The notes under the pieces were generated by a model. It was not told the DNA's origin. It did no database searches and worked only from the letters and a program-made list of their open reading frames with translations. The translations under genes were made by a program, and so were the position numbers. DNA of 64,000 bases from Planctomycetota bacterium (GTDB taxonomy: Bacteria > Planctomycetota > UBA8108 > UBA1146): positions 386 through 64,385 of the forward strand of contig JAPKAM010000001.1 in NCBI GenBank assembly GCA_028825265.1, given 5' to 3'. Of this stretch, positions 9,801 to 64,000 are shown one piece after another; the stretch's first letter is position 1; each line of letters begins with the position of its first letter.

Positions 9801-9819
9801 AAGTTAGCCAGGAGCGCGG

Positions 9820-11034: not shown

Positions 11035-11081
11035 AACCTTCCCGGCAATTCCGGGATGAAATTAATGATTAGGAGGCGGCC

Positions 11082-11501: not shown

Positions 11502-11505
11502 GCTC

Positions 11506-21865: not shown

Positions 21866-21907
21866 GACAGGGCTCCTCTCGAATCATCCTCGGGATGGGA
21901 ATCATGA

Positions 21908-23071: not shown

Positions 23072-23078
23072 GAAATCT

Positions 23079-27800: not shown

Positions 27801-27948
27801 TGTTGATATTGATGCTCATGCTGCCGAGATCTGCAGTGGCACTGAGAGGAATCCTATTGATGGAAAGGATCCCGCCGAGCACCAGCAGGATGTGCAAGGT
27901 CAGGGTGGTGATGGGTCGCTCAAGACAGAAGCGGACAAAGGTTTTCAT
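24862..27948 (-). CDS. RND family efflux permease (AcrB/MdtC-like), second of a tandem pair
   Basis: 1028 aa with 12-TM RND architecture and conserved stretches (e.g. ...LLCGIVVNNGIVLIDQ..., AIRKGASDRLRPILITALTTVLGLIPMA). Confidence 0.9.
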   Translation of the reverse strand: MKTFVRFCLERPITTLTLHILLVLGGILSINRIPLSATADLGSMSININIPYPNASPIQVENEVVRPLEEALATLRRVRGFNSESREGNGRVTLRFDYGEDLDQVKVEIRERLARAKEQLPLEDLDRIRLSTGGWGADADAIMEARISAVGINLSENYDLLVNRIQRPLERLDGVGQVALDGVTPKEVRISFTKGDLERHGLTLGRVAQAIRNSNVDATIGRVWSDGKTRRLRLINALPDIEAMRQLPINRNGLRLGQVATIEKKEGELRWGRHLNGSYAVSLEISQEAGANTVEVCKNVRAEVERISQDPQLAGINLLVWQDQGQMIVSSLARLRDAGFIGGGLALMILLIFLRRISATVLVGMTIPISVLAALAVLHFLDQELNIITIMALMLGVGMLVDTAVVVVESIVRRAGLGDDPVTAATTGTLEVATPVFAATLTTMVVFLPVFISERNGFSDALASVGLVISLTIAASLFVSLTLVPMVAARIYSGGDPGKSSWFKKVSLGYEKLLKSALTHRRATLTVAVAATLSVVIPFENGFRMDMSDADWKSNYANISYRPVEGLDYREMEKTVTDIENLLASRRDVIGEGDIYSWYKDGYALTRIYPPPEIATEDYIAELRGRIDEVLPKVPGFRIRTDDGWGWGGRGHGAGSRSSAGSFRIRLAGDSSSFLDELGIEVATYLRGVEGIIEAEVAGEDEVDELRLEPDEDLLGRLQVSGDTVARSISSAFAGNRLSQLRTQSGDFDITLGLDEDETDSVQELNFMRFPLTDTLELPIQEIGKVEQVEAPNRRRRDQRLANLTVSAQYDPSSKDQIQQRLEMALSEYPWPVGYSWDLGEGWSGRWRNRSSFGEGLYLSVFLVYLVLACLFESLRTPLVLMVTVLLAIPGVIWTLWLQGDSLDTPAAVGLILLCGIVVNNGIVLIDQVRRRLDEGIDPILAIRKGASDRLRPILITALTTVLGLIPMAYGTQMLTGPQFNTLGKAIVGGLSVSTVLTLIVLPVVLSFILKAKKPDLPAPAAAESSPM

Positions 27949-30900: not shown

Positions 30901-31058
30901 GGCAATTCGGTCTGAACCGTCAGCGTCGGGTAGGTGATATCTGGAAGCAACTCGATGGGAAGACGTCCGAGCGAAAGAGCACCGAAGGTAAATGCGGCGA
31001 TGGTGATCATTCCCACCGTCACTGGTCTTCGGATGATTCCCTTCAGCCAGTTCTCCAT
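27945..31058 (-). CDS. RND family efflux permease (AcrB/MdtB-like), first of a tandem pair
   Basis: 1037 aa. RND motifs (GIVVNNGIIFV, AAKTAGVERLRPILITSATTILGLMPLA). Its stop overlaps the downstream RND gene start by 4 bp. Confidence 0.9.
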   Translation of the reverse strand: MENWLKGIIRRPVTVGMITIAAFTFGALSLGRLPIELLPDITYPTLTVQTELPDASPQEVEQLVTEPIEEVVGVVQGLRRYISDSRAGVSEVVLEFSWDTDMQRASLDVREKLDLINLPDDARAPLVFRFDPSLDPMMRLALTGSRSVADLRKLAELRVKRSLETLDGVAAARVIGGAEDEVLVELDPKRLDVLRISVPEVAQRLAQENVNRSGGEIRDQQTAYRLRTVREFQSLEDIEDVIIRHGEAGTVRVRDIGSAEIVPKDEEILVRVNGKPAVQIDLYKEGDANAVSVAKGVRARLETLEKDRSLNGCEIEILADQARFIEESIASVESTAMVGAMLAALVLFLFLRNIISTLTIALSIPISVAVTFLLMELTGVSINVLSLGGLALGIGMLVDNSVVVLESIQRLRDDGVEMRTAVTQGTAQVMGGIIASTLTTIAVFLPLIFVQGIGGEIFRDQALTVTYSLLASLFVAITVIPTIIANGSGSGSGWLSKLFQLLDRLLSPLSNVFTVAMKAAQKAYARVLDRILEVSWVPPVLALGLCFAILPRATDLGSELVPDLFQGQFHFDVELAEGTPLEETDRKVAALEHAIDRLREEGLPIAMTTSIVGDAPVLGEVQSGDRREHVARVSVTLTPEANRADEERVIDRIVGEFNKVPDCPYTLGRPSLFTFRDPIEIEVYDEDLDLLRSSAFAIEDRLELVPGLLDVKAQVSDQVPEVHVRLDPVRIAAYGLSLEQIANSLRAKGIGEVATQYRYAEKPIDIRVRMRGALDKTLSDVEMDSVTLAGDGVVAPLRVASLGRLEQALGPVEIRRVGGERSVLVTARTDGIDLGTATERAESVIHGDYLPPTSSAQMSGQNQEMKESLSSLTEALVLAVFVVYLVLASTFESLLLPFIVIFTVPLGICGAVIAMFLTGIPLGVLSMIGVILLCGIVVNNGIIFVARIQQLSQQGHDPSSAAKTAGVERLRPILITSATTILGLMPLALGLGPGAELRKPLAITVVWGLAVATVMTLAVIPTGYRLLQRSIRAGDPS

Positions 31059-31082
31059 CGATTCCTCCTCAGCAACGGTAAA

Positions 31083-32507
31083 TCATCCGCCGGAGCTGTT
31101 GGTTCCGCTCGCTTCGCTGGTCTTCTGAATTTGAGTCTCGACCTGCGTCGATCCTGCAGGATCGACGGCAGTGTTACCCGTAGGGATGGCTACCGATGGC
31201 GAGCGTGAGTCTTTACCCGGACGCCGGCCGGTGGACTTCCCCGCTCGGCGATCACCACGAGTCTCACCAGAGGTACCGGTCGGACCTGTCCGTGATTCCT
31301 TTATTGGATTCGGCTGCCGATCTGCGGAACCACCATCCATCCTCTCGACGGTGATGGAGTCGACTTCGACTGGAATTTCTCGGTAGACGCTAACCCGATC
31401 ACGATCGGAAAGATCGTCCAGCCCCTGGACCACGACCCGGTCACCCAGGCCCAGTCCTTCCTCGCAGACGATGATCGTCTCGTTCTCGTAACCGGTCACC
31501 ACATCGATCTCCTGAACAGTTTCACCATCTTCGAGCAGGCGAAAGATGCGTGATCGTCCTTCACCTTTCAGCACCGCCTTGCGCGGCACCACGATGCAGT
31601 TCTTCAGGGTCCTGGTGATGATGTCTATGTGGGCAAATGAACCGGGTCGTAACGTCACTCCCGCATCTGGAAATGTGGTCAACACCTCGACGGTCAAACT
31701 CTCGCGATCGACCACCGGACTGATTCGTTCGACGGTGCCTTCGGAAAGCACCGGGCCGTCGCTTTCAGAGCGCAGCACACAGCGTTGACCCAGTTCGACA
31801 TCACCCACTTCGCTCTCGGGGAGGTACAGCCGAACTCGAAGCGGCTCAAAGTCGGCGAAGGCAAATAATTCATCGCCAACTCGAACGTATTGCCCCGATT
31901 CCACCCGGCGACGAATGATGATGCCGTCGAATAAAGCCTCGGGCTGAGAATGCCCCAGGTCGATCAGGGAACGAGCATGATTCGCTTCAGTTTTCTGCAG
32001 AGTAAATCGGGAGTCTTCTAGTTCTTGATTGGTGACGCCGCGAATTTCAGACAAACCCTCGAGTCGTTCGAAACTCGCCTTGGCCTGCTCCATCTCAATT
32101 CGAGCGAGTTGTTCTGAGATCCGCAACTCCTCCTGATCGATGGTGCAGAGGGTCATCCCCTTGCTCACCTGCTGGCCCTCGACCACGTGAACGTCGTCGA
32201 CACTTCCTTCGACCCTGGAGAGGAGCGAGACCTGTCTCTCGGGCTCCAGGATTCCACTGCCGCGGACTCGTTCTCGAATCACTGCCAACATCGAGGAGGT
32301 CACTTCTACTGGCACCACTTCTTGTCGGTTGCTGGTCGCCGATGTTCCGTATTGAAATCCACCGGAACTTCGACCTCCCGAGGATCCAGGCCGTCCCATC
32401 GAACCGGCTCCAGGTGCAGAGTTTCCACCAGGAATGGCACCGTGAGAGAACCAGCCGATGGCCACCAGGGCGATCGCAGTGATCAACTGCGGCATCCATC
32501 GTTTCAT
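31083..32507 (-). CDS. RND efflux membrane fusion protein (HlyD/MdtA-like) with long Gly/Ser/Arg-rich C-terminal tail
   Basis: Lipoyl, beta-barrel and hairpin pattern (coiled-coil ...ISEQLARIEMEQAKASFERLEGL...). The C-terminal ~100 aa are low-complexity (GPTGTSGETRGDRRAGKSTGRRPGKDSRSPS...). Confidence 0.85.
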   Translation of the reverse strand: MKRWMPQLITAIALVAIGWFSHGAIPGGNSAPGAGSMGRPGSSGGRSSGGFQYGTSATSNRQEVVPVEVTSSMLAVIRERVRGSGILEPERQVSLLSRVEGSVDDVHVVEGQQVSKGMTLCTIDQEELRISEQLARIEMEQAKASFERLEGLSEIRGVTNQELEDSRFTLQKTEANHARSLIDLGHSQPEALFDGIIIRRRVESGQYVRVGDELFAFADFEPLRVRLYLPESEVGDVELGQRCVLRSESDGPVLSEGTVERISPVVDRESLTVEVLTTFPDAGVTLRPGSFAHIDIITRTLKNCIVVPRKAVLKGEGRSRIFRLLEDGETVQEIDVVTGYENETIIVCEEGLGLGDRVVVQGLDDLSDRDRVSVYREIPVEVDSITVERMDGGSADRQPNPIKESRTGPTGTSGETRGDRRAGKSTGRRPGKDSRSPSVAIPTGNTAVDPAGSTQVETQIQKTSEASGTNSSGG

Positions 32508-34325: not shown

Positions 34326-35939
34326 ATGCTGAATGCCATCGAGATCCAGATCTGGGAACGGAGAGGTCGCCCCTTGAACCAGCAATACGAAGACGAATCG
34401 TTTGAAGAACAAGAAGAGGAAAATGATGTTGGTGGCTGGCTCACCAACACACCGTACTGGCTCATCTCCATCGCCCTTCACGTGATTGTTCTGTTCATCC
34501 TCGGCAGTGTTGTCGTTCTCGAAATTGTTGAGGAAGAGGAACAGCGCCGGACCGTGGTCAAGAAAGAGATCAAGCCACCAAAGTACGATCCGACCAAGAA
34601 GCGAGACATCGAGCGCAAGCCAGAGATCCTCGAGAAGCAAAAGAAGGATCCGGTCAAGATTCTCAAACCCGACAAGATCAGCCGGACTCCCAAGGGAACC
34701 AGCAAGAACAACAAGACCAACAAGAACATCAAGAACCAGCTCAATGATGCCTTCGGAATGACTGGCGCGGGAGCCGGTGCCTACGGAGATCGTTTCGGAA
34801 GAGGATCCCTCTCTCGTGAAGGAGGCTCCGAGGCCACCGAGAGCGCCGTGCTCGCGGCGCTCAAGTGGCTCGAACGGCATCAGCACCCCGACGGCCACTG
34901 GTCCTCGAATGGCTTCCTCCGTCCCGATGGGTGTGAAAAAGAAGATGGCGATGGATGGGATGGCTACGATGTCGGCTGCACTGCCATGGCGATGCTGGCC
35001 TACCTCGGATTTGGCCATACACACGAGAGTGGCGAGTTCCCTGAATTCGTAGTGGTGATGCGTAAAGCGATGGACTGGATGCTCAAACAGCAGGTCAAAG
35101 ACGCGGATCCCAAGATCAAAGGCTTGTTCGGATTGCCCCTCGATAATGCCGACGAGTGGATCTACAACCACGCCATCGCGACGATGGCGATGAGTGAGTT
35201 ATTGCTGCTCTCCCATGACAAGATCAAGTTGGCCAAACCGGTTGAAAATGCCACAAAATGGTGCCTGCGGGCACAGAATCCCGGATACGGGTGGAAGTAC
35301 GGTTACCAGGCAGGCCGCAACGATACCTCTGTCACCGGCTGGATGGTGCTGGCTCTGAAGACCTCCAAGGTCTGTGCCCTGTCCCGCTACATCAAGATCA
35401 AATCAAAGGACTTCCAGCCCGCCTTTGACGGTGCGCTCAAGTGGTTCGAATCCTGTACTTCTGAGCGAAGTGGAATCTGCGGCTACGAGACTCCGGGAGA
35501 CGAGGGCTCCCGTCTGCAGGCCCATGTCGAACCCTATCCGTACTCCAAGGATCTCTCCTGTATGACCGCAGTTTCGGTGCTGTGCCGCATCTTCGCCGGC
35601 GAAAAAACCAGTTCCGATGCGATCAAGTCTGGAGCTGCCGTTTTGATGGAGGAAATTCCCCGCTGGCGTGCCCAGCAGGGCAAGCGTAAGTCGAAGATCA
35701 ACCTCTACTACTGGTACTACGCCACCTACGCGATGTTCCAGATCGGCGGAAGTAAGTGGCGCGAGTGGAATGAAGCGATGATCGAAGCGCTGGTTAAAAA
35801 CCAGCGAGTCGGCGGTTGTGAAGATGGATCCTGGGATCCGGTCGGAGAATGGGGCATCGCTGGTGGACGCGTCTACAACACGGCCATCGGTGCGATGACC
35901 CTCGAAGTCTACTACCGCTTCGCCAGAGCCGGAAATTGA
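34326..35939 (+). CDS. Membrane-anchored prenyltransferase/squalene-oxidase-repeat (alpha/alpha-toroid) protein with Lys-rich linker
   Basis: TM YWLISIALHVIVLFILGSVVVL. K/E-rich linker. Repeated toroid motifs (AVLAALKWLERHQHPDGHW, GWKYGYQAGRNDTSVTGWMVLAL, YWYYATYAMFQIGG). Confidence 0.6.
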   Translation: MLNAIEIQIWERRGRPLNQQYEDESFEEQEEENDVGGWLTNTPYWLISIALHVIVLFILGSVVVLEIVEEEEQRRTVVKKEIKPPKYDPTKKRDIERKPEILEKQKKDPVKILKPDKISRTPKGTSKNNKTNKNIKNQLNDAFGMTGAGAGAYGDRFGRGSLSREGGSEATESAVLAALKWLERHQHPDGHWSSNGFLRPDGCEKEDGDGWDGYDVGCTAMAMLAYLGFGHTHESGEFPEFVVVMRKAMDWMLKQQVKDADPKIKGLFGLPLDNADEWIYNHAIATMAMSELLLLSHDKIKLAKPVENATKWCLRAQNPGYGWKYGYQAGRNDTSVTGWMVLALKTSKVCALSRYIKIKSKDFQPAFDGALKWFESCTSERSGICGYETPGDEGSRLQAHVEPYPYSKDLSCMTAVSVLCRIFAGEKTSSDAIKSGAAVLMEEIPRWRAQQGKRKSKINLYYWYYATYAMFQIGGSKWREWNEAMIEALVKNQRVGGCEDGSWDPVGEWGIAGGRVYNTAIGAMTLEVYYRFARAGN

Positions 35940-51397: not shown

Positions 51398-54144
51398 CTA
51401 GTGATCCCGTCCGGGGCTGGCTCTCAATGCTGGCTCTGCCGCGAATCCAGTCGGCGATTCGATACGAGTCACTTCCACCGCAGCCACTTTGAACTCGGGG
51501 GTTTCCGTGATGGGATCCACATCTGGATTGGTGATGTCGTTGGTCATCGTTTCCTCAGGAAAGGCGAAACTCATGAACATGGTCCCGCGAGGGGATGTCT
51601 TTGTGACGGTCACCCGAGTCATCACCTCGCCACGACGGGAGCGGATTTTTGCCCAGTCGCCATCTTCGAGTTTCAACTTCTCGGCATCCGCTGGATGAAC
51701 TTCGAGCCATTCATTGGGAACCAGGATCCGAAATCCGCTCGACCGCCCAGTCATGGTGTTGGTGTGATAGGTCGGCAAACGACGTCCTGTGGTCAGGTAG
51801 TAGGGATACTCATCGTCTGGATTCTCCGAAGGAGGGACATACTCCAGTAACTGCAACTTGCCCTTACCATTGACGAACTCATCCTCGTGCAACACGGGAG
51901 TTCCAGGGTGGTCGAGGTGAGGAACTGGCCATGCCAGATCTCCCGATTCGATCCGATCGTAATTGAGCCCCGCATAGATGGGAGACAAGGATGCCAGTTC
52001 ATCGAAGACCTCTTCGCTACTGGAATAGTCGAAATGAACTCCGCTTTCCATCCGCTTGGCGACTTCCGCAATGATCCACCAGTCCGCCTTTGCTTCTCCC
52101 GGCGGTACAGCCGCCTGCCTCAGGCGTTGCACACGACGATCCGAATTGGTGAAGAAGCCATCGACCTCAGTGAACGCTGCCGCAGGAAAGATCACATCTG
52201 CTTTTTCCGCCGTGTCAGTGAGAAACATGTCCTGAACAACGAGGAAATCCAGAGCTTCGAGAGCCTTGGTTGTGTGCTTGACATCAGGATCGGTGACCAG
52301 TGTGTTTTCGCCGACAATCCACATCGATTTGACTCGACCATCGACTGCATGATCGAGGGCTGCGATTTTTGTGATTCCATTTTTTGGGTCCATCGGAACA
52401 CCATAGGCCTTCTCGAATTTCAGCTGGCTCGCAGGATCATCGACCGCCTGGAATCCGGGGTAGTTGTTGGGCAATGCGCCGCAATCACCGGCTCCCTGGA
52501 TGTTGTTCTGGCCACGCAAGGGATTGACTCCAGCACTGCTCTTCCCCAGGTTTCCTGTGATCAGTGCTAGATTACAGAGGCTCTGTACATTTGAGACTCC
52601 GCAGATGTGCTCCGTGATTCCAAGGGTGTAATAAATTCCAGCTCGCTCTGCTGAACCATACGCGATGGCACATTCACGAATCAAATCTGCAGGAACCCCG
52701 GTGACTCCCTCGGCATATTCGGGCGTGAAGGGCACCAAGTGATCCTTCAATTGCTCGAATCCTTCGGTACGATTCTCGATGTAATCCAGATCTGCGAGCC
52801 CTTCCTGGATGATCACATTGGCCATCGCATTGAAGAGCGCGACATCGGAACCCAGTTTCAATGGCAAGTGCCCGGTGGCGTATTGTGTCAGCGGTATCTT
52901 TCGTGGATCGACCACGTAAAGCTTGGCACCCTTTCGAACCGCCTTCTTCACACGCACCGCGATGATCGGATGGCATTCGGTCATGTTGGTACCGACACAC
53001 AGCATCATCGGGCAATCCTCGATCTCGGGGATCGAGTTCGACATCGCTCCGCGTCCAATCGAGGCCGCCAGACCGGCGACCGTTGGACTGTGTCAGCCAC
53101 GCGAACAGTTGTCGATTTGATTCGAGTTCATCACTGCTCGAGTGAACTTCTGTAACATGTAGGCACTTTCGCCAGGAGCTCTACCACTGGCGATGGCGTA
53201 AAAGGCCTTGGGGCCATGGTCCGCCTTGATGCTCTTAAGGCGTGAAGCAGTATAGTCGAGCGCCTCGTTCCAGGAGACTGGAGTCAACTTCCCCTGCTTG
53301 CGAATCAGTGGCCTGGTCAGTCGGTCATCCGAGTTGACGAAATCAAACCCAAACTGTCCCTTCACGCACAACGCTCCGGCATTGACCGGGCCGCCGAGAA
53401 CCGGCGTGACTCCGATCATCTTTCCATCCCTTGAATGGAGATTGATGGAACAACCGGTACCACAATAGGGACACACACTTCGAGTGACTTCGATCTCACC
53501 AGGAACAGATCCCTGATTGACCATCTTCTTGTCAGCAAGAGCTCCGGTGGGACAGGTGTAGATGCATTGCCCGCAGAGCGTACAGTCGCTACCCATCAAG
53601 AGACCATCAAACGCGGTGGCGATGCCCTTGTTCCAACCACGGCCAGTCATGGTGATGGCATGATCCGCTTCCACTTCATCGCAGATTCGGACACATCGAT
53701 AGCAGGAGATGCATCGGTCGTAGTCTCGCAGCAGGAAGGGATTGGAATCATCCATCGAGGCGTTGCTGGTCGCTCCCAGGAAGCGATTGCGTCCAACCTT
53801 GAATTCTGTAGCCAGGTCGTGAACTTCACAACTTCCGAGATCCCTGCACCTCGGACACTCATCACCCGGGTTTTCCGAAAGCACCATCTCGACCAAGGTA
53901 CTCTGCATCTTCCGCAGTTTGTCACTGCCAGTGCGCACCACCATGCCTTCTGCGGCCCCCAGAGTGCAGGAAGAAGCGGGCATCCGATGGCCTTCCACTT
54001 CCACCACGCACAATCGACAGGAGCCAAAGGGCTCGAGCCGTTCATCCCAACAAAGGGTCGGAACAAAGGTCCCCAGACGCCGTGCCACTTCGAGCACCGT
54101 CTCGCCCTCCTGGAAGGTCACATCTTGACCATCGAGATTCATCT
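51398..54144 (-). CDS. fdhA: Selenocysteine-containing formate dehydrogenase catalytic subunit (FdhF/FdsA-like). N-terminal NuoG-like 2Fe-2S plus 4Fe-4S domains are fused to a Mo-bisPGD domain. The in-frame TGA (complement of 53093-53095) is read as Sec.
   Basis: The two track ORFs (53093..54217 and 51398..53044) are in the same frame, separated only by TGA. The translation across the junction is ...YMLQKFTRAVMNSNQIDNCSRG-U-HSPTVAGLAASIGRGAMSNSIPEIEDCPMMLCVGTNMTECHP... It aligns with E. coli FdhF ...VDCCARV-U-HGPSVAGL...GAMSNAINEID... N-terminus CRLCVVEV (2Fe-2S), CISCYRCVRICDE and CTLCGQCIYTCP (4Fe-4S), CPYCGTGCSINL (MopB 4Fe-4S). Start at ATG (complement of 54142-54144) with AAGGAG RBS. Confidence 0.85.
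53063..53092 (-). promoter_or_regulatory. Putative bacterial SECIS element immediately 3' of the UGA-Sec codon of fdhA
   Basis: mRNA: UGA-CACAGUCCAAC-GGUCGCC-GGUCU-GGCGGCC. 7-bp stem (with one G·U pair) and GGUCU apical loop begin 11 nt after UGA. This closely mirrors the E. coli fdhF SECIS (GGUUGCAGGUCUGCACC). Confidence 0.5.
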
Positions 54145-54149
54145 TCGAC

Positions 54150-55910
54150 TCACTCAACTGAATCTCCTTTTCCTGGGTTCTTCGCACTCTGCCCGTCGAT
54201 GTAGTCTTGCACGACATCCGGCCAGTACTTCTTCATCGTCCTGGTGATGAAGGGTGCAGCCAATCCAAGTCCACAGGCGCTGGTTTCTCCCAGCACCTCT
54301 TCCAAGTCTGCCAGTTCCTCCAGTGGATTGTCGCGAATCACCGGGTTCCCAGCGGAATGCTCGATCAATTCATCGAGCAACTCGGTAACCCTGACAGTAC
54401 CGATTCGGCAGGGAAAACACTTCCCGCACGATTCCTGCGCAAGGAAGTGCATACTCTCGCGCGCCGCTTGGATCATGCACCGAGTTTCATCGTGCACGAT
54501 GATCCCTCCGGCTCCGAGCATTGCGCCGAGTTCCGTCAAGGAACCTGGATCGAGCGCCACGTCGAGATCCGCGGCTCCGACGAACCCGCCGCTGATTCCC
54601 GCCATCGTCACACCCTGGATCGCTTTTCCATCGGGTGTTCCACCGGCGTAAGTTTGCAGGAGTTCTCGCAGCGAAGTCCCCACCGGGACCTCGTAATTTC
54701 CGGGGTGGGAGATATCTCCCGAAACGCTGAAGACTCGGGTTCCGGCATTTTCTCCCAACCCGAGTGCCTGGAACCAGGCTCCCCCTTTTTCAAGGATGGC
54801 AGGGACTGCACAGAAGGTCTCGACATTGTTGACCACTGTCGGCAGATCGAACAGTCCATGAGTGGTGGGGAAAGGAGGCTTCTCCCTCGGGAATGGGTGC
54901 TTGCCCTCCAGAGAGTTCAACAGTGAGGTCTCTTCACCACAGATGTAGGCTCCGGCTCCCCGACGGATGACAATCCGAAATGGCCGACCCGTTCCACAGA
55001 CATCATCTCCCAGCAGACCCGCCTGAGTGGCTTCGTCGATGGCGACCTGCAGTGATTCAAGGATTTCAGGGTATTCCCACCGAAGATATACGATGCCAAT
55101 CTTGGCACCGGTCACCAGGCCTGCACAGGCCATTCCCTCGAGCATTGCATGGGGACTATGAGCCATCAGAAGTCGATCCTTGAAACAACCGACCTCACTC
55201 TCGTCCGCGTTGCAAATGATGTACTTCGGCCCGCGGGTCTCGCTACGAACCGCTTCCCACTTCACGCCGGTGGGAAATCCTGCCCCCCCCCTGCCAGTGA
55301 GGCCGCTTTCATTCATCTGGGCGAGCACTTCCTGAGGATCGGAGGCGGCCAGTTTGGGGCTCTCCCAGGCTCCGTGGGAAAGCGCTCCAGCGAGGGTGTC
55401 GATTCCATCTCGAATGTCTCGGAAGAGACACTCTTCCAGACCTGTTTCGGGGGGAAGCGGCATCGTCGCAGCAGTCATATTTTCGACGGCACCGGCCCGG
55501 GCACCGTGGAAAAACTTCTCGCCGATCAGAATCGGAACCGGCATATCACATCGCCCCGGGCAGGAGATCTTCTCGACCTGGCCCGAATGTGCGACTCCCA
55601 GATCCACATCGACCACCTCCCTGGAAATGGCATCCAGATCATGAAGGCAGCAAGCCGAGTTCTCACAGATACGAATATCGGGGATCGGTTTCGGCTCCAG
55701 CTGGAAGTAGTGGTAGAAGGTGACGGTGCCATAGAGGTCGCTGATGGGGATCTTGAATCGCTCAGCCACCTGTCGGAGAGCAGGTTCTGGCAGATAACCA
55801 TGATGATCCTGGATCGCATGAAGCACCTCCAGGAACGGAGCCGGCTGCTCCATCAGGCGATCGAGAATCCCATCGGTGACCGGATCCTTGACCTCGATTC
55901 CCGTCTTCAT
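54150..55910 (-). CDS. Fused NuoE-like (2Fe-2S) / NuoF-like (FMN, NADH-binding, 4Fe-4S) diaphorase subunit of NAD(P)-linked formate dehydrogenase
   Basis: NuoE part: HAIQDHHGYLPEPALRQVAERFKIPISDLYGTVTFYHYF...ICENSACCLHD. NuoF part: GRGGAGFPTGVKWE, ESCGKCFPCRIGT. Immediately upstream of fdhA (5-nt gap). Confidence 0.85.
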   Translation of the reverse strand: MKTGIEVKDPVTDGILDRLMEQPAPFLEVLHAIQDHHGYLPEPALRQVAERFKIPISDLYGTVTFYHYFQLEPKPIPDIRICENSACCLHDLDAISREVVDVDLGVAHSGQVEKISCPGRCDMPVPILIGEKFFHGARAGAVENMTAATMPLPPETGLEECLFRDIRDGIDTLAGALSHGAWESPKLAASDPQEVLAQMNESGLTGRGGAGFPTGVKWEAVRSETRGPKYIICNADESEVGCFKDRLLMAHSPHAMLEGMACAGLVTGAKIGIVYLRWEYPEILESLQVAIDEATQAGLLGDDVCGTGRPFRIVIRRGAGAYICGEETSLLNSLEGKHPFPREKPPFPTTHGLFDLPTVVNNVETFCAVPAILEKGGAWFQALGLGENAGTRVFSVSGDISHPGNYEVPVGTSLRELLQTYAGGTPDGKAIQGVTMAGISGGFVGAADLDVALDPGSLTELGAMLGAGGIIVHDETRCMIQAARESMHFLAQESCGKCFPCRIGTVRVTELLDELIEHSAGNPVIRDNPLEELADLEEVLGETSACGLGLAAPFITRTMKKYWPDVVQDYIDGQSAKNPGKGDSVE

Positions 55911-56056: not shown

Positions 56057-56092
56057 AAAAAAGCGGCCCCGCTGCGTGTACAGCGGGGCCGC
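56057..56092 (-). terminator. Rho-independent terminator downstream of the S8-PKD protease gene
   Basis: 12-bp perfect inverted repeat GCGGCCCCGCTG / CAGCGGGGCCGC with a 6-nt loop. It is followed on the - strand by TTTTTT (AAAAAA at 56057-56062 on +). Confidence 0.6.
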
Positions 56093-56118: not shown

Positions 56119-59100
56119 TCAGCGAATCGAGAGTCCGTCGATATCCTCACTGGCGTTGATCCCGAGTGCACTCATATCGAGAATCAACTCTGCAAGCCCC
56201 GATGTCGCGCTTCCAAAACTACCGGTGAATCGCGAGACATCCTCGTCCGCACCGGCCGATCCCGAGGCGGAGTAAGATCCCTGGGTCGAGAAGAGCAAGG
56301 ATCCATCAAAATCGAGACTGATGGCATTGAGATCTTCACCACCGCTGTTGGAAAAACCAACATCACTCCCATCGAAGAAAGTGGTCCAGGAACCACCGCT
56401 GGCAGAGCCTACGGATGTGGGGGTGAAGAGCATCACATCTTCATCGCGGTTGGTCGGCCCACCGCCACGAGCCGTGCCCAGCGTCGACATCAACAAGGTG
56501 CCATCATCTAGATAACAAACCCCATCGATATCCTCACCGTTGGTCGTGAGTGCACAGTCCGAACCATCGAGGTAGAAGGACCATGAGCCCGCGCTGCTGG
56601 AGCCGGTCATGGTGGGCGTGAACAGAACCAGGTCACTATCTTCCACCGTGTTTCCGGAGGGCCCACCTATGAGTCCCGACAATGAGAACGAGCCGGAGTT
56701 AAAGGAAACCAGCACGCTACCATCCGCAAGGACGCTGAGAGCATTGATGTCGGTACTACCGATACCGACATCGCTACCGTCCAAATACCAGTCCCAGGAA
56801 TCGGTCGCTGGATCGTAGGTCACGATGTCTTCATCCCGAACCGTTCCCAGTCCAGGTACCGTGGTGGTCGACAGGAATGAGATGTAGTACAGCGTTGACG
56901 AAGGAGGCGGTGGGGGCGGCGGAGGAGGATCGGTCACAACGATGCAAGAGTTGCAAGTGACGGTGTCAGAGCCCCCCGGTCCGGTCACCGTCAAACTCAC
57001 GGTGTAGGTCCCGGCACTGGTATAGGTGTGCGACGGGTTCAGTGCCGACGATCCATTTCCATCACCAAAGTCCCACGAGTAACCGGTGATGTCTCCGATC
57101 GACGAATTACTGAAGGAGACGGTCACCGGCGCTTCGCCCCCCGATGAATCGTGGATGAAGCCAGCCACCGGAGCGGGTGGCGGCGGCGGCGGATCGGTCA
57201 CCACGATGCACGAGTTACAGGTCGCGGTGTCCGAGCCCCCCGGTCCAGTCGCCGTCAGGGTCACGGTGTAGGTGCCTGCACTGGTATAGGTGTGCGATGG
57301 GTTCTGCGCGGTCGAGGCGCCGCCATCGCCAAAGGTCCACGAGTATCCACTGATATCTCCCGTCGACGAATTGCTGAAGGAGACGGTCACCGGTGCTTCA
57401 CCACCGGAGGAATCGGCCGAGAAACCGGCCACCGGAGCGGTCGGCGGGGGTGGCGGCGGATCGGTCACCACGATGCACGAGCCACAAGTTGCCGTGTCGG
57501 AGCCCCCCGCGCCGGTGGCGGTCAAGGTCACGGTGTAGGTGCCAGCACTGGTGTAGGTGTGCGACGGGTTCAGTGCCGTCGAGCCCCCTCCATCGCCAAA
57601 GTCCCACGAGTATCCGCTGATGTCTCCGGTCGACGAATTATTGAAGGAGACGGTCACCGGTGCTTCACCACCGGATGAACTGGGCGTGAAGCCCGCCGCC
57701 GGTGGTGGCGGTGGCGGATCGGTCACCACGATGCACGAGCCACAAGTTGCCGTGTCCGAACCCCCCGGACCGGTCACCGTCAAGATCACGGTGTAGGTGC
57801 CAGCACTGCTATAGGTGTGCGACGGATTCTGCGCCGTCGATGCGCCACCATCGCCAAAGGTCCACGAGAATCCACTGATGTCTCCGGTCGACGAATTGCT
57901 GAAGGAGACGCTCACCGGCGCTTCTCCGCCGGATGAACTGGGCGTGAAGCCCGCCACCGGTGGTGGCGGCGGCGGATCGGTCACCACGATGCACGAGTTA
58001 CAGGTTGCGGTGTTGGAGCCCCCCGGTCCAGTTGCGGTCAAGGTCACCGTGTAGGTGCCCGCACTGGTGTAACTGTGGGACGGGTTCAGTGCCGTCGATC
58101 CACCCCCGTCGCCGAAGTTCCACAAATAGCCGGTGATGTCTCCGGTCGACGAATTACTGAAGGAAACAGTCACCGGCGCTTCACCACTGGTCGGCGATGG
58201 CACGAAGCCGGCTACCGGTGCGGGAGGAGGGGGCGGGGGTGATCCGATGAAGCAATTGAGGATCGCACCGACCAGACCTGCCCGGGTCGATGCGCCATCG
58301 ACGAGCCCACCGATCTCGAATGAAGTTCCGAAGGTACGATAGGTGCCGGCATCATTGAACACCCCGACATCGTAGGCTGCAGTCGGATTGGTCAGGGTGA
58401 CCACTGCACTGCCCGTCGTTCCGAGACGATCGATCCAACTGTTCTCACCGCTATAGCTCCAACTACTGCCCACAAGGCTGCAGCCGGCTCCGGCGGCTCC
58501 GTTAACGGTCGAAAGGTCACTGGTTCCATCGGACAGTCCGCTGATCCCAAAGTGCGAATGAACCGCGGTCGCACTGTCGTAGGCCCAGGTATCGCCTCCC
58601 TCCATGTAGAGGAAGGATCCACCGACACCATTGGTCAGGTAGGTCTCGAGAGTGGTGCCCTCTGCGGCCGACAGTACATGGCCCGATGGGTAAATGCCCA
58701 GATTGACCCAGACCGTCTCGAAGGCGTCGAGACTCGCGACGGCATCGAGGGTGGTGACCACCAGTGGCGAACGACCATTGGCGGTGAGTGCCGCAGAGAT
58801 GGCACTTCCCCCCGCCACGGCACCGCCCGCTGCCGATGGAGCCCAGACCAGATCGGTCGCTCCTCCGGTGAGGAAAATGGAGCAACTGACCTGAGGACTT
58901 TGGTCCGAGCCGACGAAGCCTCGAACTCCGTAGGAGATGTTTCCCACTCCTGCGGCGGAATCGGTGTACGAGGTGGCAGATCCGGAAAGAGTGGCGATGA
59001 CGCTACCGCCGCGGCTCACCTGTACCTGTGAATAACTCTCGCCATTGGTCCAAGAGAGGAGCGCATCGGCACCGGAGCTGCTACAGCTGAGATTGGTCGG

Positions 59101-60720
59101 CGCGCTCACGGAACTCGCCACCGTCAGCAGCAACGCCTCGCAGTTGATCCGTCCGTAGCCCATGTATTGATCAAAACCGGCCGTATCTTCCGAGGGCGGC
59201 CCAACTTGGTCATCAGCGGTCTGTCGCATGTAAGTTCGAACTTGATCGTGGGTCAAGCCCGGCGCCACCGCCAGCAACAGTGCTCCAGCACCCGCAGCGT
59301 GAGGGGTGGCCGAAGATGTACCGTTGAAACTGGAAGTGTAGTCGGTTGAAGAGTAGCCACCGCTGCCGGAGATATCGACGGTGGTCGTCAACGGACCCGG
59401 TGCGACAAAGTCGAGAGCAGATCCGTAGTTACTGCCCCACCAGGTTTCTCCATCGCAAGACGATGGACTCTTGCGTTCATCACAGGGGCTGGAAGCACCC
59501 ACGGCGATCGCTTCTGGATAGAGTGCCGGATAAGAGACCGCAGAGTTGTCATTCCCTGAAGCGAAGAAAACCGGGCAACCCAGTCCCCCTCTTCCGTTGG
59601 TGTTGCCGTAAGCGACCGCATTCTGGATGGCGCTACTGGCCGATCCTCCCCCCCAGCTATTGGAGAGAACATCCGCACCATGGTCGACCGGCCAGGTCAG
59701 TCCATCGACGAGCCAATCGGTCTGAGTCCAGAAACTTCCGAATCCGATGCGCACCGGCATGATCTTGCTGTTCCACGTGACACCCGTGACACCGATTCCG
59801 TTGTTTCCCACCGCTGCGATGATGCCTGCACAGCAGGTTCCATGGCCGTCTGTGGAGTTGGCATTTCCGGGGATCCCTCCCGGTGTGGGGTCAGCAGTGA
59901 CGGCATCGTAGCCCGCCACCATGTTGGCTTGCAGGTCCGCATGATTCACATCGACACCTTCGTCGATGACCGCCACCACGATGCTCGAAGAACCGGTCGA
60001 GATGTCCCAGGCGGCGGCGGCTTTCATGTCCGCACCGATGGTGCCGCCGGTTTGTCCGGTATTCTGCATGTCCCACTGATCTGGGAAGAGCGGATCGTTA
60101 GGAGTCGCCATTTCTGGCAAATCGTGGATAAAATTGGGCTCCGCAACCCAGACTTCCTCCAGTTGCGTCAGGGCGTCAGAGATTTCGAAACCGAGCGATG
60201 TGGGTCCATCGAAACCCAGCATGTAGGTCGGATCGATGGCCGGAAACTCCCTGAGAAAGCGCAGTCCTGACTGTCGAATCACGCTTCGGATCTCATCAGC
60301 GTCGACCGAACCATCGAAAGTCACGATGACTTCCGGCCGTGGAATCATGACCGCTTCTTGGTACCCGAGGACCGGGCCGGCAAACTCGACGACGGCCGCA
60401 CTCGATAGTTGTGCGAGGATCTCTTGCTGCATCCTTGCATCGACTCGCTTCTCGAGAGGGACGTACCACAGTCCAGGGTACTCCTGCAGGTCCTTTTCAC
60501 TGACCTTGCCGACTCCTCGGATCGATCGCAGTTCGGCCCGCAGGGAACCCAACTCATCTTCCAGTCCGTCGATCATCTTGACCGCAACGATCCCATCCAC
60601 CTGAACCAGGGATGCTCGTCCTTCTCCGTAGGGATAGGACCACTTCTGCCCTGTCTCCTGAGCGCTGGAAAGAAGGGGGGAAAACAGCACAAAGAGCAGT
60701 GCCGGGAAAATTCGAAGCAT
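56119..60720 (-). CDS. Giant secreted subtilisin-like serine protease (S8) with 5 tandem PKD domains and a C-terminal triple-repeat domain of unknown function
   Basis: Signal peptide MLRIFPALLFVLFSPLLSSAQE (start at complement of 60718-60720, AGGAGG RBS 5 nt upstream; an in-frame ATG 15 nt further upstream is an alternative). S8 triad regions VAVIDEGVDVNHADL (Asp), HGTCCAGIIAA (His), GTSSATPHAAGAGALL (Ser). Five ~88-aa PKD repeats (...EAPVTVSFSNSSTGDISGYSWTFGDGG.STA.NPSHTY.SAGTYTVTLTATGPGGSDTATC.SCIVVT) are separated by poly-Pro linkers. Confidence 0.85.
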   Translation of the reverse strand: MLRIFPALLFVLFSPLLSSAQETGQKWSYPYGEGRASLVQVDGIVAVKMIDGLEDELGSLRAELRSIRGVGKVSEKDLQEYPGLWYVPLEKRVDARMQQEILAQLSSAAVVEFAGPVLGYQEAVMIPRPEVIVTFDGSVDADEIRSVIRQSGLRFLREFPAIDPTYMLGFDGPTSLGFEISDALTQLEEVWVAEPNFIHDLPEMATPNDPLFPDQWDMQNTGQTGGTIGADMKAAAAWDISTGSSSIVVAVIDEGVDVNHADLQANMVAGYDAVTADPTPGGIPGNANSTDGHGTCCAGIIAAVGNNGIGVTGVTWNSKIMPVRIGFGSFWTQTDWLVDGLTWPVDHGADVLSNSWGGGSASSAIQNAVAYGNTNGRGGLGCPVFFASGNDNSAVSYPALYPEAIAVGASSPCDERKSPSSCDGETWWGSNYGSALDFVAPGPLTTTVDISGSGGYSSTDYTSSFNGTSSATPHAAGAGALLLAVAPGLTHDQVRTYMRQTADDQVGPPSEDTAGFDQYMGYGRINCEALLLTVASSVSAPTNLSCSSSGADALLSWTNGESYSQVQVSRGGSVIATLSGSATSYTDSAAGVGNISYGVRGFVGSDQSPQVSCSIFLTGGATDLVWAPSAAGGAVAGGSAISAALTANGRSPLVVTTLDAVASLDAFETVWVNLGIYPSGHVLSAAEGTTLETYLTNGVGGSFLYMEGGDTWAYDSATAVHSHFGISGLSDGTSDLSTVNGAAGAGCSLVGSSWSYSGENSWIDRLGTTGSAVVTLTNPTAAYDVGVFNDAGTYRTFGTSFEIGGLVDGASTRAGLVGAILNCFIGSPPPPPPAPVAGFVPSPTSGEAPVTVSFSNSSTGDITGYLWNFGDGGGSTALNPSHSYTSAGTYTVTLTATGPGGSNTATCNSCIVVTDPPPPPPVAGFTPSSSGGEAPVSVSFSNSSTGDISGFSWTFGDGGASTAQNPSHTYSSAGTYTVILTVTGPGGSDTATCGSCIVVTDPPPPPPAAGFTPSSSGGEAPVTVSFNNSSTGDISGYSWDFGDGGGSTALNPSHTYTSAGTYTVTLTATGAGGSDTATCGSCIVVTDPPPPPPTAPVAGFSADSSGGEAPVTVSFSNSSTGDISGYSWTFGDGGASTAQNPSHTYTSAGTYTVTLTATGPGGSDTATCNSCIVVTDPPPPPPAPVAGFIHDSSGGEAPVTVSFSNSSIGDITGYSWDFGDGNGSSALNPSHTYTSAGTYTVSLTVTGPGGSDTVTCNSCIVVTDPPPPPPPPPSSTLYYISFLSTTTVPGLGTVRDEDIVTYDPATDSWDWYLDGSDVGIGSTDINALSVLADGSVLVSFNSGSFSLSGLIGGPSGNTVEDSDLVLFTPTMTGSSSAGSWSFYLDGSDCALTTNGEDIDGVCYLDDGTLLMSTLGTARGGGPTNRDEDVMLFTPTSVGSASGGSWTTFFDGSDVGFSNSGGEDLNAISLDFDGSLLFSTQGSYSASGSAGADEDVSRFTGSFGSATSGLAELILDMSALGINASEDIDGLSIR
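56930..58250. repeat. Five near-identical ~264-bp tandem DNA repeats (encoding PKD domains plus PPPPPP linkers)
   Basis: Strong DNA periodicity. The + strand shadow ORFs at 57086, 57290, 57557, 57815 and 58133 have near-identical sequences (…SPVDELLKETVTGASPP…GGGGGG…). Confidence 0.85.
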
Positions 60721-60955
60721 AAGTTCCTCCTGCATTCGGCGATGCCGAAAACCAACTCGGGAGTCCCGAGTCATGACATGACGGGGCAAATCAAAAGAAC
60801 CCAATCTCGCAGGCGGGAGCGAGGAACGAGCAGTTTGATCGAGAGAATCGACCACATCAACCATGTGCCTTCCTCCTCGAGGATGGGCTATCCTGCCACA
60901 GTGAATTCTGTAGGACTCTTTGGAAACAACCCAACATCTCGATGAAGGAGCACTG

Positions 60956-61996
60956 ATGAATACCCTGATCGTATTGATCACAATTATGGCCACGGCTGTC
61001 CCGACAATGGACGATTCATCTCCATGGCTCACCTTCAATGGCACCAAGGGCGCGGGAGTGGGAAAGCACATCGTATTGATCACGGGCGATGAGGAGTACC
61101 GATCGGAACAAGGGATGCCCCAGATGGCTCAGGTCCTCGCCAAGCACCACGGCTTCCGCTGCACGGTCCTCTTTTCCATCGATCCCGAAACCGGTTGTAT
61201 AGATCCGCAGGTCAATGACAACATTCCCGGAATGGAGCTCATCGATGGAGCCGACCTGGTGATTCTCTTCACCCGCTTCCGAAATCTTCCAGACGAACAG
61301 ATGAAACACTTCGTCAATTTCGTCAATTCGGGCAAACCTGTGATCGGACTACGAACATCGACTCACGCCTTCGATATCCCGGGTGACCGGGAGTATCACC
61401 GCTGGTCGTGGCGGAATGGCCAGTGGGACGGCGGGTTTGGACGCCAGGTGATGGGTGAGACATGGATCGATCATCATGGAGGCCATGGCTGGCAAAGTAG
61501 TAGCGGCATCATCGTCGAAGGGGCCAGCGATCATCCGATCCTCCAGGGGATCAAGAACGGCGATGTCTGGGACCCTTCCGATGTCTACACGGTACGGTTA
61601 CCACTCCCCAAGGGCTGCACCCCTCTATTGAACGGTCGAGTGCTGTCGGGGATGGACCCCGATGACGGACCCTGTGAGGTGGAGAAGAAAGACGACCAGA
61701 CCACATTCGACAAGAACGATCCGATGATGCCGATCGCCTGGACCCATGTACGCCGATCTGAAAGCGGCAAGAAGCAGCGGGTCTTCTCCTCGACCTTTGG
61801 AGCATCGCGTTCCTTTACCCGGGAAGGCTCGAGAAGGCTGCTGGTCAACGCCTGCTACTGGTGCCTCGGCATGCAGGGGCAGATCAAACCGAACTTGACG
61901 GTCGATCTGGTCGGCGACTATCAACCGACCCAGTTCGGATTCGGCAAGCACACCCCCGATCTGAAGCCAGCGGACATGGTCAAGACGGCTCAATGA
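60956..61996 (+). CDS. ThuA-like (trehalose-utilisation / class-I glutamine amidotransferase-like) protein
   Basis: HIVLITGDEEYRSEQGMPQMAQVLAKHHGFRCTVLFS...ELIDGADLVILFTRFRNLPDEQMKHFVNFVNSGKPVIGLRTSTHAF is the ThuA family pattern. AAGGAG RBS before ATG 60956. Confidence 0.75.
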   Translation: MNTLIVLITIMATAVPTMDDSSPWLTFNGTKGAGVGKHIVLITGDEEYRSEQGMPQMAQVLAKHHGFRCTVLFSIDPETGCIDPQVNDNIPGMELIDGADLVILFTRFRNLPDEQMKHFVNFVNSGKPVIGLRTSTHAFDIPGDREYHRWSWRNGQWDGGFGRQVMGETWIDHHGGHGWQSSSGIIVEGASDHPILQGIKNGDVWDPSDVYTVRLPLPKGCTPLLNGRVLSGMDPDDGPCEVEKKDDQTTFDKNDPMMPIAWTHVRRSESGKKQRVFSSTFGASRSFTREGSRRLLVNACYWCLGMQGQIKPNLTVDLVGDYQPTQFGFGKHTPDLKPADMVKTAQ

Positions 61997-64000
61997 TTGC
62001 AGCGATCTTCTTGCTGACATCCTTCGCCGGGGAGATCACCGGATCGGATCAAGAGCCGCCCTTCATCGGCGCCTACTCCACCGAGTACCGCAATGGAACC
62101 TCTCCATCGATCTCTGGCGGATTGCTGCTGCTGGGTGAACTGGGTTGCACGGCGTGTCACTCGACCACGGATGGTTCTTCTCGCTGGATCCTCCCGAGGC
62201 AGGCACCTCGCCTCGAGCGTATCGCCCAGCGGGTCGATCCGAAGCACCTGCACCAGTTGATCCTCGATCCCGCCACGACCCATCCGGGCACCGTGATGCC
62301 GTCGCTGCTGGATGACCACCCCGAGCGGCAGCAAGCGGCCTTCGATCTGGTCGAGTACCTGCTCTCGCGATCGCCCGCCGATTCGCACTGGCAACCGACA
62401 GCACCGGATCAGGTGGCCATCGATGAAGGCGAGCGCCTCTACCATCAGGTCGGTTGCGTCAGCTGTCATGAACCGCTTCGCGAGGGAGCGATCCAGCCAC
62501 TCCACTCGAATCGGCTCGCCGGCCGGGTCGAACACTGGTCGCAACCACAGTTGACAAAATTCCTGAAGGATCCGCATCAGGTCAGGCCCTCCGGGCGGAT
62601 GCCCTCCCTTGGGCTTCAGCACGGTGAAGCCAATGCCCTCGCACACTACCTGCTGCGCAGCACCAGAGTTGCCGCCCCGCTCGACCTCGCCATCGATTGG
62701 GGACATCGAAAAGGCCTCGACGATTCCTCTCGTTCACGACCGAGAAACACGACGATCACCGGTAGTTTCTCGCTACCCGATCAGCAGCGCAGAAACGATG
62801 TCACCACTCACTTCTCTGGCTGGCTTCGCATCGAACAAGCGGGAGATTACCAGTTCTTCCTGAAGGTCGATGACATCGGCAGGTTACGGATCGACGAGAA
62901 GGATGTCATCGATCTGGGAGGCAAGAAAAATTATCAGCGTAAGAAGGTGATGGAGAGCCAAGCCTCCATCGATCTTGAATCGGGGTTGCATCGCATCGAG
63001 GTGTCTCACTTCCAGTGGGTCGATGATGCCATCCTGGAACTGGAGTGGCTCGGCCCCGGGATCGATCGTGGACCGATCGACTCCAGCTTATTGACCAACT
63101 CCAGGGAACCCCTGCCGCCGGTTCTCAGCTGGAATCACCAGCGTGGCGATGCCAAGCGGGGCGAGGACCTCTACCTGAAGCTGGGCTGTGCTCAGTGCCA
63201 CGAAGATGGGAACGCAGCCACCGTAGACAGCGTAAATACCTTAGAGCAGTTGTCTGGTCCACTTCCTGGCCACCATCATCCTCGTTATCCCCTCTCTGCA
63301 CGGCAAACCGCTGACCTCGAGGCCGCTCTCCACTTTCTGCAGGATCGTCCAGAGGCACCCGCTGCGCAGCAGCGAGTCGATCACACTCTTCGCTCCTTTC
63401 GATGCACCGCCTGCCATTCAAGGGGAGACCTCGGTGGCGTCGCACAAGATCGAAACGATTTTTTCACCGGTACCGAGCCGCTGCTCGGTGACGAAGGGCG
63501 TCTTCCCCCACCGCTAGCGGGAGTGGGTGACAAACTGGTGCTCGATTGGCTCGATGCAGTGATTCGATCGGGGCGTAGCTTGCGAAGTTACTTCCACACT
63601 CGCATGCCGACCTTCGATCACCCACAAACCCGGTCCCTCGCGGCAGATCTGATCGCTGTGGATCGTCATGTCACAGGCGTGCCTCGCATGATCCATGACG
63701 ATGATGCCATGAAGGCCGCAGGGCATCAGATGGCGGGCAGCAACATGCTGCAGTGTGTTCTCTGTCACGACTTCAATCAGAAACATTCGGTGGGGATGCG
63801 AGCGATGGATCTGGTCACCACCACCGAACGACTCAACCGAGACTGGTTTCATCGCTACATGCTCGACCCGGAATCGCTTCGCCCCGGCACCCAGATGCTG
63901 GCCTTCTGGCCTGAAGGCCGCAGCATGGTTCCAGAACTACTCGGCGGAGATGCCGGACAGCAGGTGCAGGCTCTCTGGCGCTATCTCGAAGATGGTGATC
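61993..64000 (+). CDS. Partial (3'-truncated) c-type cytochrome / PA14-domain protein, of the Planctomycete PSCyt type
   Basis: Haem-binding CxxCH motifs: LGCTACHST, LGCAQCHED, FRCTACHSR, LQCVLCHDF. PA14-like segment GDYQFFLKVDDIGRLRIDEKDVIDLGG...HFQWVDDAILELEW. Its ATG overlaps the ThuA stop (ATGA). The frame is open to the window end. Confidence 0.7.
   Translation, partial: MIAAIFLLTSFAGEITGSDQEPPFIGAYSTEYRNGTSPSISGGLLLLGELGCTACHSTTDGSSRWILPRQAPRLERIAQRVDPKHLHQLILDPATTHPGTVMPSLLDDHPERQQAAFDLVEYLLSRSPADSHWQPTAPDQVAIDEGERLYHQVGCVSCHEPLREGAIQPLHSNRLAGRVEHWSQPQLTKFLKDPHQVRPSGRMPSLGLQHGEANALAHYLLRSTRVAAPLDLAIDWGHRKGLDDSSRSRPRNTTITGSFSLPDQQRRNDVTTHFSGWLRIEQAGDYQFFLKVDDIGRLRIDEKDVIDLGGKKNYQRKKVMESQASIDLESGLHRIEVSHFQWVDDAILELEWLGPGIDRGPIDSSLLTNSREPLPPVLSWNHQRGDAKRGEDLYLKLGCAQCHEDGNAATVDSVNTLEQLSGPLPGHHHPRYPLSARQTADLEAALHFLQDRPEAPAAQQRVDHTLRSFRCTACHSRGDLGGVAQDRNDFFTGTEPLLGDEGRLPPPLAGVGDKLVLDWLDAVIRSGRSLRSYFHTRMPTFDHPQTRSLAADLIAVDRHVTGVPRMIHDDDAMKAAGHQMAGSNMLQCVLCHDFNQKHSVGMRAMDLVTTTERLNRDWFHRYMLDPESLRPGTQMLAFWPEGRSMVPELLGGDAGQQVQALWRYLEDGD

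Follow-up and report, generated by a model that had tools for sequence, protein, structure and literature searches.

An in-frame UGA followed by a conserved hairpin is predicted to encode selenocysteine in a formate dehydrogenase gene of a Planctomycetota bacterium

In a stretch of 64,000 nucleotides from a Planctomycetota bacterium (assembly GCA_028825265.1, contig JAPKAM010000001.1, positions 386 to 64,385; hereafter the window, whose own numbering is used throughout), the gene fdhA, for the alpha subunit of a formate dehydrogenase, contains a single in-frame TGA on the minus strand (53095..53093). On the strength of sequence comparisons we conclude, with high confidence, that this UGA is a selenocysteine (Sec) codon within one continuous gene. 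The selenoprotein reading proposed in the initial annotation of this DNA is supported by the position of the codon, by its conservation, by the selection acting on either side of it and by the RNA hairpin that follows it.

The gene is listed as two minus-strand open reading frames (ORFs), 53093..54217 (374 amino acids, terminated by the TGA) and 51398..53044 (548 amino acids). Translation of 54217..51398 in a single frame gave 940 codons with one internal stop, in the context ...NQIDNCSRG*HSPTVAGLAASIGRGAMSNS..., confirming the earlier statement that both pieces lie in one frame and that the TGA is the sole interruption. The first ATG after the TGA is at 53044, and the 16 sense codons in between (HSPTVAGLAASIGRGA) include that of the catalytic His and are conserved at the protein level in every relative. 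The peptide across the UGA would read ...NCSRG-U-HSPTVAGLAASIGR, with the tryptic form G-U-HSPTVAGLAASIGR. Among the 38 gene-sized ORFs of the window, fdhA is the only one with an internal stop, and a scan of the window for pairs of ORFs joined by a TGA returned it as the sole biologically sensible pair; the other pairs were rejected as selenoprotein genes, all of them being gene junctions or non-coding frames.

The gene had been placed at 51398-54217 in the initial annotation; that it is one gene stands, but its N-terminal end probably does not. The extension of 25 residues that a start at 54217 would add lacks conservation among the relatives and overlaps the upstream gene, fdhB, and homology with the relatives begins at 'MNLDG', for which all of them have 'M(N/Q)LDG'. 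We therefore rejected the start at 54217 for the ATG at 54142, 7 nt past the stop of fdhB, as the most likely true start. From there fdhA spans 51398..54142 (minus strand) and has 915 codons when read through the UGA, compared with 940 from the alternative ATG, and the predicted Sec, in the motif CSRG-U-HSP, is residue 350 rather than residue 375.

For domain scans of the fdhA product, Cys was substituted at the internal stop. The Pfam domains follow one another in the order Fer2_4, NADH-G_4Fe-4S_3 (a weak match, at 22 bits against a cut-off of 27), Fer4_Nqo3, Molybdop_Fe4S4, Molybdopterin and Molydop_binding, and the Molybdopterin domain (PF00384), at residues 299-722, runs unbroken across the stop at 375. 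The product matched the NCBIfam equivalog TIGR01591 (formate dehydrogenase subunit alpha) over profile positions 2-672 of 672, with 778.2 bits against a cut-off of 666.25. Among solved structures the best matches were 9wxb_B and the FdsA subunit 6tg9_A (710-720 bits, residues 26-936), followed by the alpha subunit of the tungsten FDH1 of Methylorubrum extorquens (7e5z_A and 7vw6_A; 682 bits, query residues 26-921). The NuoG-like Fe-S N-terminus that had been claimed for this protein is evident both from its Pfam domains and from the alignment to FdsA and Fdh1A, which starts at residue 26.

Alignment with the annotated E. coli K-12 fdhF placed the stop at the codon of Sec140, at the protein level and, against the fdhF UGA itself, at the DNA level, as the initial annotation had proposed. 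His141, Arg333, Lys44 and the [4Fe-4S] ligands Cys8, Cys11, Cys15 and Cys42 of FdhF are all conserved in the fdhA product, and the two catalytic domains are 43% identical across 669 residues. In the structure alignments, CSRG-U-HSPT pairs with CARV-C-HSPT, which holds the metal-ligand Cys of Rhodobacter capsulatus FdsA (6tg9_A) and of 9wxb_B. The U is followed by H-S-P, fitting the U-H-x-P motif that is given for FdhA in Table 1 of a review of prokaryotic selenoproteins (PMC13188914). The fdhA product has no Tat motif and there is no membrane subunit, so the natural reading of the domain architecture is a cytoplasmic, NAD(P)-linked fdhA-fdhB enzyme.

The N-terminal Fe-S region varies among the homologs. 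The His-ligated [4Fe-4S] motif of NuoG-type proteins, HPxDCxxCxxxGxC in FdsA, reads SENPxDECPRCRDxGxCE here (approximately 53880-53830; fdhA residues approximately 88-107, counted from 54142), and the change of His to Asn together with a one-residue insertion is shared by the window, its Planctomycetota relatives and an Acidobacteriota relative (L011). The Sec-type homologs of Poribacteria, Gemmatimonadota, Latescibacterota and Vulcanimicrobiota have wholly lost the cysteines of this cluster, as has MeFDH1. Three Sec-type homologs of Caldilineaceae (L013, L014 and L019) have only 145-155 codons before the TGA in the same ORF; their NuoG-like N-terminal Fe-S domains are missing or separately encoded, and a fused NuoE/F gene is still nearby.

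A scan of genome contigs with the C-terminal half as the query returned 80 related loci. The homologous codon is TGA in 28 of these (45-92% identity), which include marine Planctomycetota metagenome-assembled genomes (MAGs) related to 'UBA1146' as well as Acidobacteriota, Vulcanimicrobiota, Caldilineaceae, Gemmatimonadota, Poribacteria, Latescibacterota, Desulfobacterales and Desulfosoma, and is TGC or TGT in 26 others, all at 45% identity or below; every homolog at 45% identity or above (28/28) keeps the TGA. A Cys codon in close relatives combined with degradative lesions in this copy, which the initial annotation had named as grounds for rejecting the selenocysteine reading, is thus not what we found, and both halves of the gene are under strong purifying selection: in comparisons of the window with 11 relatives, the ratio of nonsynonymous to synonymous divergence (dN/dS, Nei-Gojobori) came to 0.03-0.08 for the part before the TGA and to 0.05-0.08 for the part after it. 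Because these low values are reached at a synonymous divergence of 0.7 to >2, the part downstream of the TGA must be translated and constrained. TGA also terminates 26 of the 38 window genes and is the commonest true stop.

Two of the related loci call for separate comment. In a Planctomycetales contig (L028, CAYRLD010000057.1, 7121-8919) the TGA and the hairpin are kept, and the downstream frame is 392 codons long compared with approximately 564 elsewhere, which points to a frameshift or to faulty assembly of this contig. A locus labelled 'MAG: Bacillota bacterium' (L008, QNYK01000003.1) carries fdhB, fdhA, M48 and PMT_2 genes that are syntenic with, and 57-88% identical to, those of the Planctomycetota group; this bin is probably mislabelled or contaminated.

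Immediately downstream of the UGA lies a predicted bacterial selenocysteine insertion sequence (SECIS) hairpin (53053..53088, minus strand), recognized from its fold, its match to Rfam SECIS_3, covariation and synonymous conservation. In its lower stem 53088-53083 pair with 53058-53053 (GUCCAA/UUGGAC), in its 7-bp upper stem 53081-53075 pair with 53069-53063, and the apical loop GGUCU occupies 53074-53070, the upper part reading GGUCGCC-GGUCU-GGCGGCC; the distance from the UGA is 11 nt to the upper stem and 18 nt to the loop. The 36-nt element has a minimum free energy (MFE) of -18.7 kcal/mol (z = -3.38), and none of 200 shuffled sequences was as stable. Published criteria for bacterial SECIS (bSECIS) elements specify a loop of 3-9 nt with a G in its first two positions, an upper stem of 4-16 bp, a distance of 16-37 nt from the UGA and an MFE <= -7.5 kcal/mol (PMC13188914), and the hairpin, with its 5-nt loop beginning GG, its 7 bp, its 18-nt distance and its -18.7 kcal/mol, lies within all of these limits. 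It also agrees with a second description, in which the stem has 6-8 bp and a conserved G in the loop lies approximately 20 nt past the UGA (PMC4605307). In a local search of 351 nt, the best Rfam match was SECIS_3 (RF01989), over the full model (positions 1-59), with 51.6 bits and E = 3e-11; SECIS_2 scored 23.9 bits against a gathering score of 70.

Because the Rfam SECIS models include coding sequence, pairing was assessed independently by covariation, in an alignment of 25 TGA homologs with 20 Cys homologs as the contrast set. The upper helix is 96% paired across the TGA homologs, and three of its pairs change on both sides: pair 24-36 is C-G (17), G-C (4) or U-A (4), pair 27-33 is C-G (23) or A-U (2), and pair 21-39 includes G-C (13), A-U (3) and G-U (2). 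All six covarying columns are third-codon positions, which makes the compensatory changes silent at the protein level. In 500 shuffles neither the observed pairing nor the observed covariation was reached, and sliding the 3' arm to other registers gave pairing of at most 49%, compared with the 85% observed. The same columns in the Cys homologs are 37% paired, no better than in shuffles; Cys homologs fold weakly at this site (-7.4 and -7.6 kcal/mol, with positive z), and the closest of them gave no Rfam SECIS match at E <= 10. Within the Planctomycetota group, synonymous-codon identity to the window is 87% over the 14 codons after the TGA, compared with 55% over the rest of the gene. This conserved and covarying hairpin is very probably the element by which the UGA is recoded.

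Several observations weigh against this reading. When a 60-nt segment rather than the 36-nt element was folded, it was no more stable than its shuffles (z = -0.63), the bounds of that segment being arbitrary. The SECIS_3 score of 51.6 bits lies below the gathering score of 63, which none of seven Sec relatives reaches either, and part of it is owed to coding-sequence similarity to fdnG-type genes; at gathering thresholds, Rfam gave no match anywhere in the window. The window hairpin has a U-G wobble at the place of the bulged U of E. coli fdhF; of the 25 TGA homologs, 24 have U-G there and one has U-A. By its features the element would work like a bSECIS, although it falls outside SECIS_3 by the Rfam threshold. 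Finally, no gene for selA, selB, selD or tRNA(Sec) turned up in the 64 kb of the window or in 10 kb of flanking sequence around each of the 80 loci, so that the decoding machinery is assumed. With ARAGORN, the window yielded no tRNA at all and the 29 related loci scanned yielded no tRNA-Sec, Pfam found no SelA, SelB, SelD, FdhD or FdsD domain among approximately 40 gene-sized window ORFs, and tBLASTn with E. coli SelA, SelB and SelD probes gave no match at E <= 1e-3 in the window or the 80 loci; the initial annotation was right that no selA, selB, selC or selD gene lies in the window. Some Planctomycetes do carry complete gene sets for Sec insertion (PMC4807772).

An in-frame stop that divides an ORF, in a window with no Sec machinery, might be taken as a nonsense mutation in a former Cys- or Sec-containing formate dehydrogenase gene. 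Such a mutation would have to have struck exactly the metal-ligand codon, in 28 loci from independent assemblies and several phyla, in a gene that has no other lesions, whose downstream part is as constrained as its upstream part and whose stop is followed by a conserved, covarying hairpin, and we give a pseudogene next to no credence. The recurrence of the same codon in 28 independently assembled loci weighs equally against a sequencing or assembly error that turned TGC or TGT into TGA, in favour of which we found nothing specific and whose probability we regard as negligible. A genome-wide reassignment of UGA was also considered and rejected, because TGA ends 26 of the 38 window genes and no other gene has an internal stop. 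Taken together, the conservation of the TGA, the dN/dS values and the stop usage effectively exclude a pseudogene, a sequencing error and a change of code.

Two further explanations accept that both halves are expressed. The gene could be truly split, into a 349-residue Fe-S protein and, by a restart at 53044, a 548-residue molybdopterin protein that assemble together, and this is indeed how gene callers and an NCBI record annotate relatives (355 and 552 amino acids). Such an arrangement would leave HSPTVAGLAASIGRGA, with its catalytic His, untranslated in spite of its protein-level conservation, would break a single Pfam domain and would leave the active site without its sixth metal ligand, whereas every full-length homolog is one chain that carries Cys at this position; we consider it extremely unlikely. 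Somewhat less remote, but still very improbable, is read-through without Sec, for instance through decoding by near-cognate tRNAs (for Cys, Trp or Arg) or, under selenium scarcity, by Cys-tRNA(Sec). That no sel genes were observed would be compatible with it, and it is otherwise a formal possibility with no positive evidence; a conserved SelB-type hairpin at canonical spacing would have no role in it, TGA serves as the commonest true stop in this window, and lineages that do not need Sec at the site use TGC or TGT.

Under the selenocysteine reading, fdhA would encode the catalytic alpha subunit of a cytoplasmic metal-dependent formate dehydrogenase, with Mo or W as the probable metal of a bis-MGD centre. 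With the ribosome at the UGA, the downstream mRNA would form the 7-bp hairpin with its GGUCU loop, and SelB-GTP carrying Sec-tRNA(Sec) would bind this loop and presumably deliver Sec to the A site instead of release factor 2. The selenol of the Sec would then be the sixth ligand of the Mo/W centre, beside the catalytic His and Arg, both of which are conserved. Formate oxidation would feed electrons into the proximal [4Fe-4S] cluster, from which the NuoG-like Fe-S chain within this one polypeptide would lead them to the fused NuoE/NuoF partner, where they would reduce what is probably NAD(P)+ at the FMN.

That partner, fdhB (54150..55910, minus strand; 586 amino acids), combines a NuoE-like [2Fe-2S] thioredoxin-like domain with a NuoF-like FMN/NAD(H)/[4Fe-4S] module. 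Its Pfam domains are 2Fe-2S_thioredx, Complex1_51K, SLBB and NADH_4Fe-4S, its NCBIfam matches, all to the nuoF and nuoE families, lie under their cut-offs, and residues 24-567 match the beta subunit of M. extorquens FDH1 (7e5z_B). The earlier description of it as a fused NuoE/NuoF diaphorase subunit therefore holds. The adjacency of fdhB and fdhA is kept in both the Sec and the Cys clades.

Upstream of fdhB, a strong hairpin resembling an intrinsic terminator (56063..56092, minus strand; 13 pairs, of which 11 are G-C, with a TTTTTT tract behind them) stands after a gene for a 1654-residue subtilase (Peptidase_S8) with five PKD domains (56119-61083, minus strand), which lies directly upstream of the fdh operon and is syntenic in several Planctomycetota relatives; the hairpin, at 56092..56063, probably marks the upstream limit of the fdhB-fdhA transcription unit. 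On the other side, a gene for an M48 peptidase starts 3 nt past the fdhA stop and is followed by one for a PMT_2 glycosyltransferase, and this fdhA-M48-PMT_2 layout is kept in most close Planctomycetota relatives. In the Acidobacteriota locus L011, a group II intron domain match (RF00029; 20400-20475, minus strand; 60.3 bits, above the gathering score) lies approximately 9 kb downstream of the Sec-type fdhA gene.

Elsewhere in the window, the region 1004-13420 contains genes for a Ser/Thr protein kinase and for an FHA-GAF-sigma54 activator and, after them, a cluster like those for type II secretion or type IV pili, with a secretin N-domain protein, a secretin, a T2SSE ATPase, T2SSF and three N-methyl pseudopilins; further pilus-like genes (PilM_2, PilX_N) occur at 20123-24674 on the opposite strand. 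At 24862-32507 (minus strand), two tandem genes for AcrB-family RND transporters (1028 and 1037 amino acids) stand behind an HlyD-type membrane-fusion gene, whose TGA stop (31085-31083) is in frame with the following pump ORF; this is a gene junction and was rejected as a recoding site. Five ORFs of 182-537 amino acids gave no Pfam match at E <= 1e-3, at 34326-35939 (plus strand), 21908-23071, 19572-20120 and 61990-62706 (all minus strand) and 164-751 (plus strand), and the 537-residue one is overlapped by a 317-residue ORF on the opposite strand, either of which could be the real gene.

The initial annotation had predicted that automated gene calling would divide fdhA into two genes, and this is what has happened to an 85%-identical relative (GCA_009937185.1, contig JAACCY010000120.1), which is called in the NCBI record as proteins of 355 and 552 amino acids, the C-terminal piece being named only 'molybdopterin-dependent oxidoreductase' in one source. 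The same is seen in a collection of 5.8 billion proteins. Among the best 120 matches there, 103 are full-length single chains with Cys at the Sec site, and 15, which are the closest relatives (69-91% identity), are present as C-terminal fragments of 536-552 amino acids only, most of them beginning 'MSNSIPEIED' at the first Met past the TGA; none of the close homologs recovered was left unsplit by gene callers. No bacterial selenoprotein is more widely distributed than FdhA (PMC1794560, PMC13188914). The window gene is one more, mis-annotated member of the best known among the bacterial selenoprotein families and does not amount to a new kind of system. Its presence is biologically expected, given the wide distribution of FdhA (PMC1794560, PMC13188914) and the Sec machinery known in some Planctomycetes (PMC4807772). 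The main value of the result lies in annotation hygiene, since a metabolic reconstruction of these marine Planctomycetota might overlook an intact formate dehydrogenase together with the selenium need that it implies.

Compared with E. coli FdhF (PDB 1aa6), the window gene has the same arrangement of a UGA followed, after 11 nt, by a stem-loop with GGUC in the loop. FdhF, however, lacks the NuoG-like N-terminal Fe-S domains and is partnered with hydrogenase 3 rather than with a NuoE/F diaphorase, and the U that is bulged in the fdhF SECIS forms a U-G (or U-A) pair here. The Rfam SECIS_2 consensus reads like the fdhF element, and that of SECIS_3, by our own reading of it, the SECIS of E. coli fdnG and fdoG. 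In the SECIS_3 model (RF01989) the U is bulged and the loop, closed by A-U, has 3 nt, whereas in the window hairpin the U is paired and the loop reads GGUCU (or GUC closed by G-U).

The classical Sec-containing analogue is the NADP-dependent W/Se formate dehydrogenase of Moorella thermoacetica. This enzyme and other clostridial Sec-FdhA proteins have Sec alpha subunits with N-terminal Fe-S domains and a NuoE/F-like partner, and the SECIS of Moorella fdhA is a fully paired stem with a loop of the GGUCU type; their hosts are anaerobic acetogens, unlike the marine Planctomycetota. Full-length matches labelled by JGI as 'formate dehydrogenase (NADP+) alpha subunit' (for example P0018 and P0115) are approximately 46-47% identical to the fdhA product.

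In subunit layout the window enzyme resembles FDH1 of M. extorquens AM1 (Fdh1A/Fdh1B; 7e5z, 7vw6; tungsten, NAD+), which likewise has two subunits, a NuoG-like alpha N-terminus and a beta subunit fused from NuoE and NuoF, and there is no FdsD-like gene among the window ORFs scanned; overall similarity to it is slightly below that to Rhodobacter FdsA, and its metal ligand is Cys (PMC13397495), where the window has a UGA and, as predicted, Sec. The FdsABG(D) enzymes of R. capsulatus and Cupriavidus necator (6tg9, 9wxb, 6vw7; molybdenum, NAD+) provide the closest structure matches of the alpha subunit, but they have a Cys ligand, separate FdsG and FdsB subunits and an FdsD cap (PMC13397495), whereas the window has E and F in one fused protein and, among the ORFs scanned, no FdsD, and the His of the NuoG-type His-ligated cluster motif of FdsA is Asn.

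It is conceivable, though we consider it rather doubtful, that the TGA clade, comprising marine Planctomycetota, Acidobacteriota, Caldilineaceae, Poribacteria, Gemmatimonadota and Latescibacterota, is a coherent cross-phylum group of Sec-containing, MeFDH1-like, two-subunit, NAD(P)-linked formate dehydrogenases. If that were so, and if the enzymes work in bacteria of the oxic water column, they would be selenium versions of the O2-tolerant class of NAD-linked formate dehydrogenases, and would have some relevance to CO2-reduction biocatalysis and to the use of selenium in the sea. Judged by sequence features, the window enzyme shares with the MeFDH1/FdsABG class the NuoG-like alpha subunit and the adjacent NuoE/F subunit but not the Cys ligand; the three characterised NAD+-dependent metal formate dehydrogenases of this class are all Cys enzymes (PMC13397495), so that a natural Sec counterpart of the same architecture could serve as a comparison.

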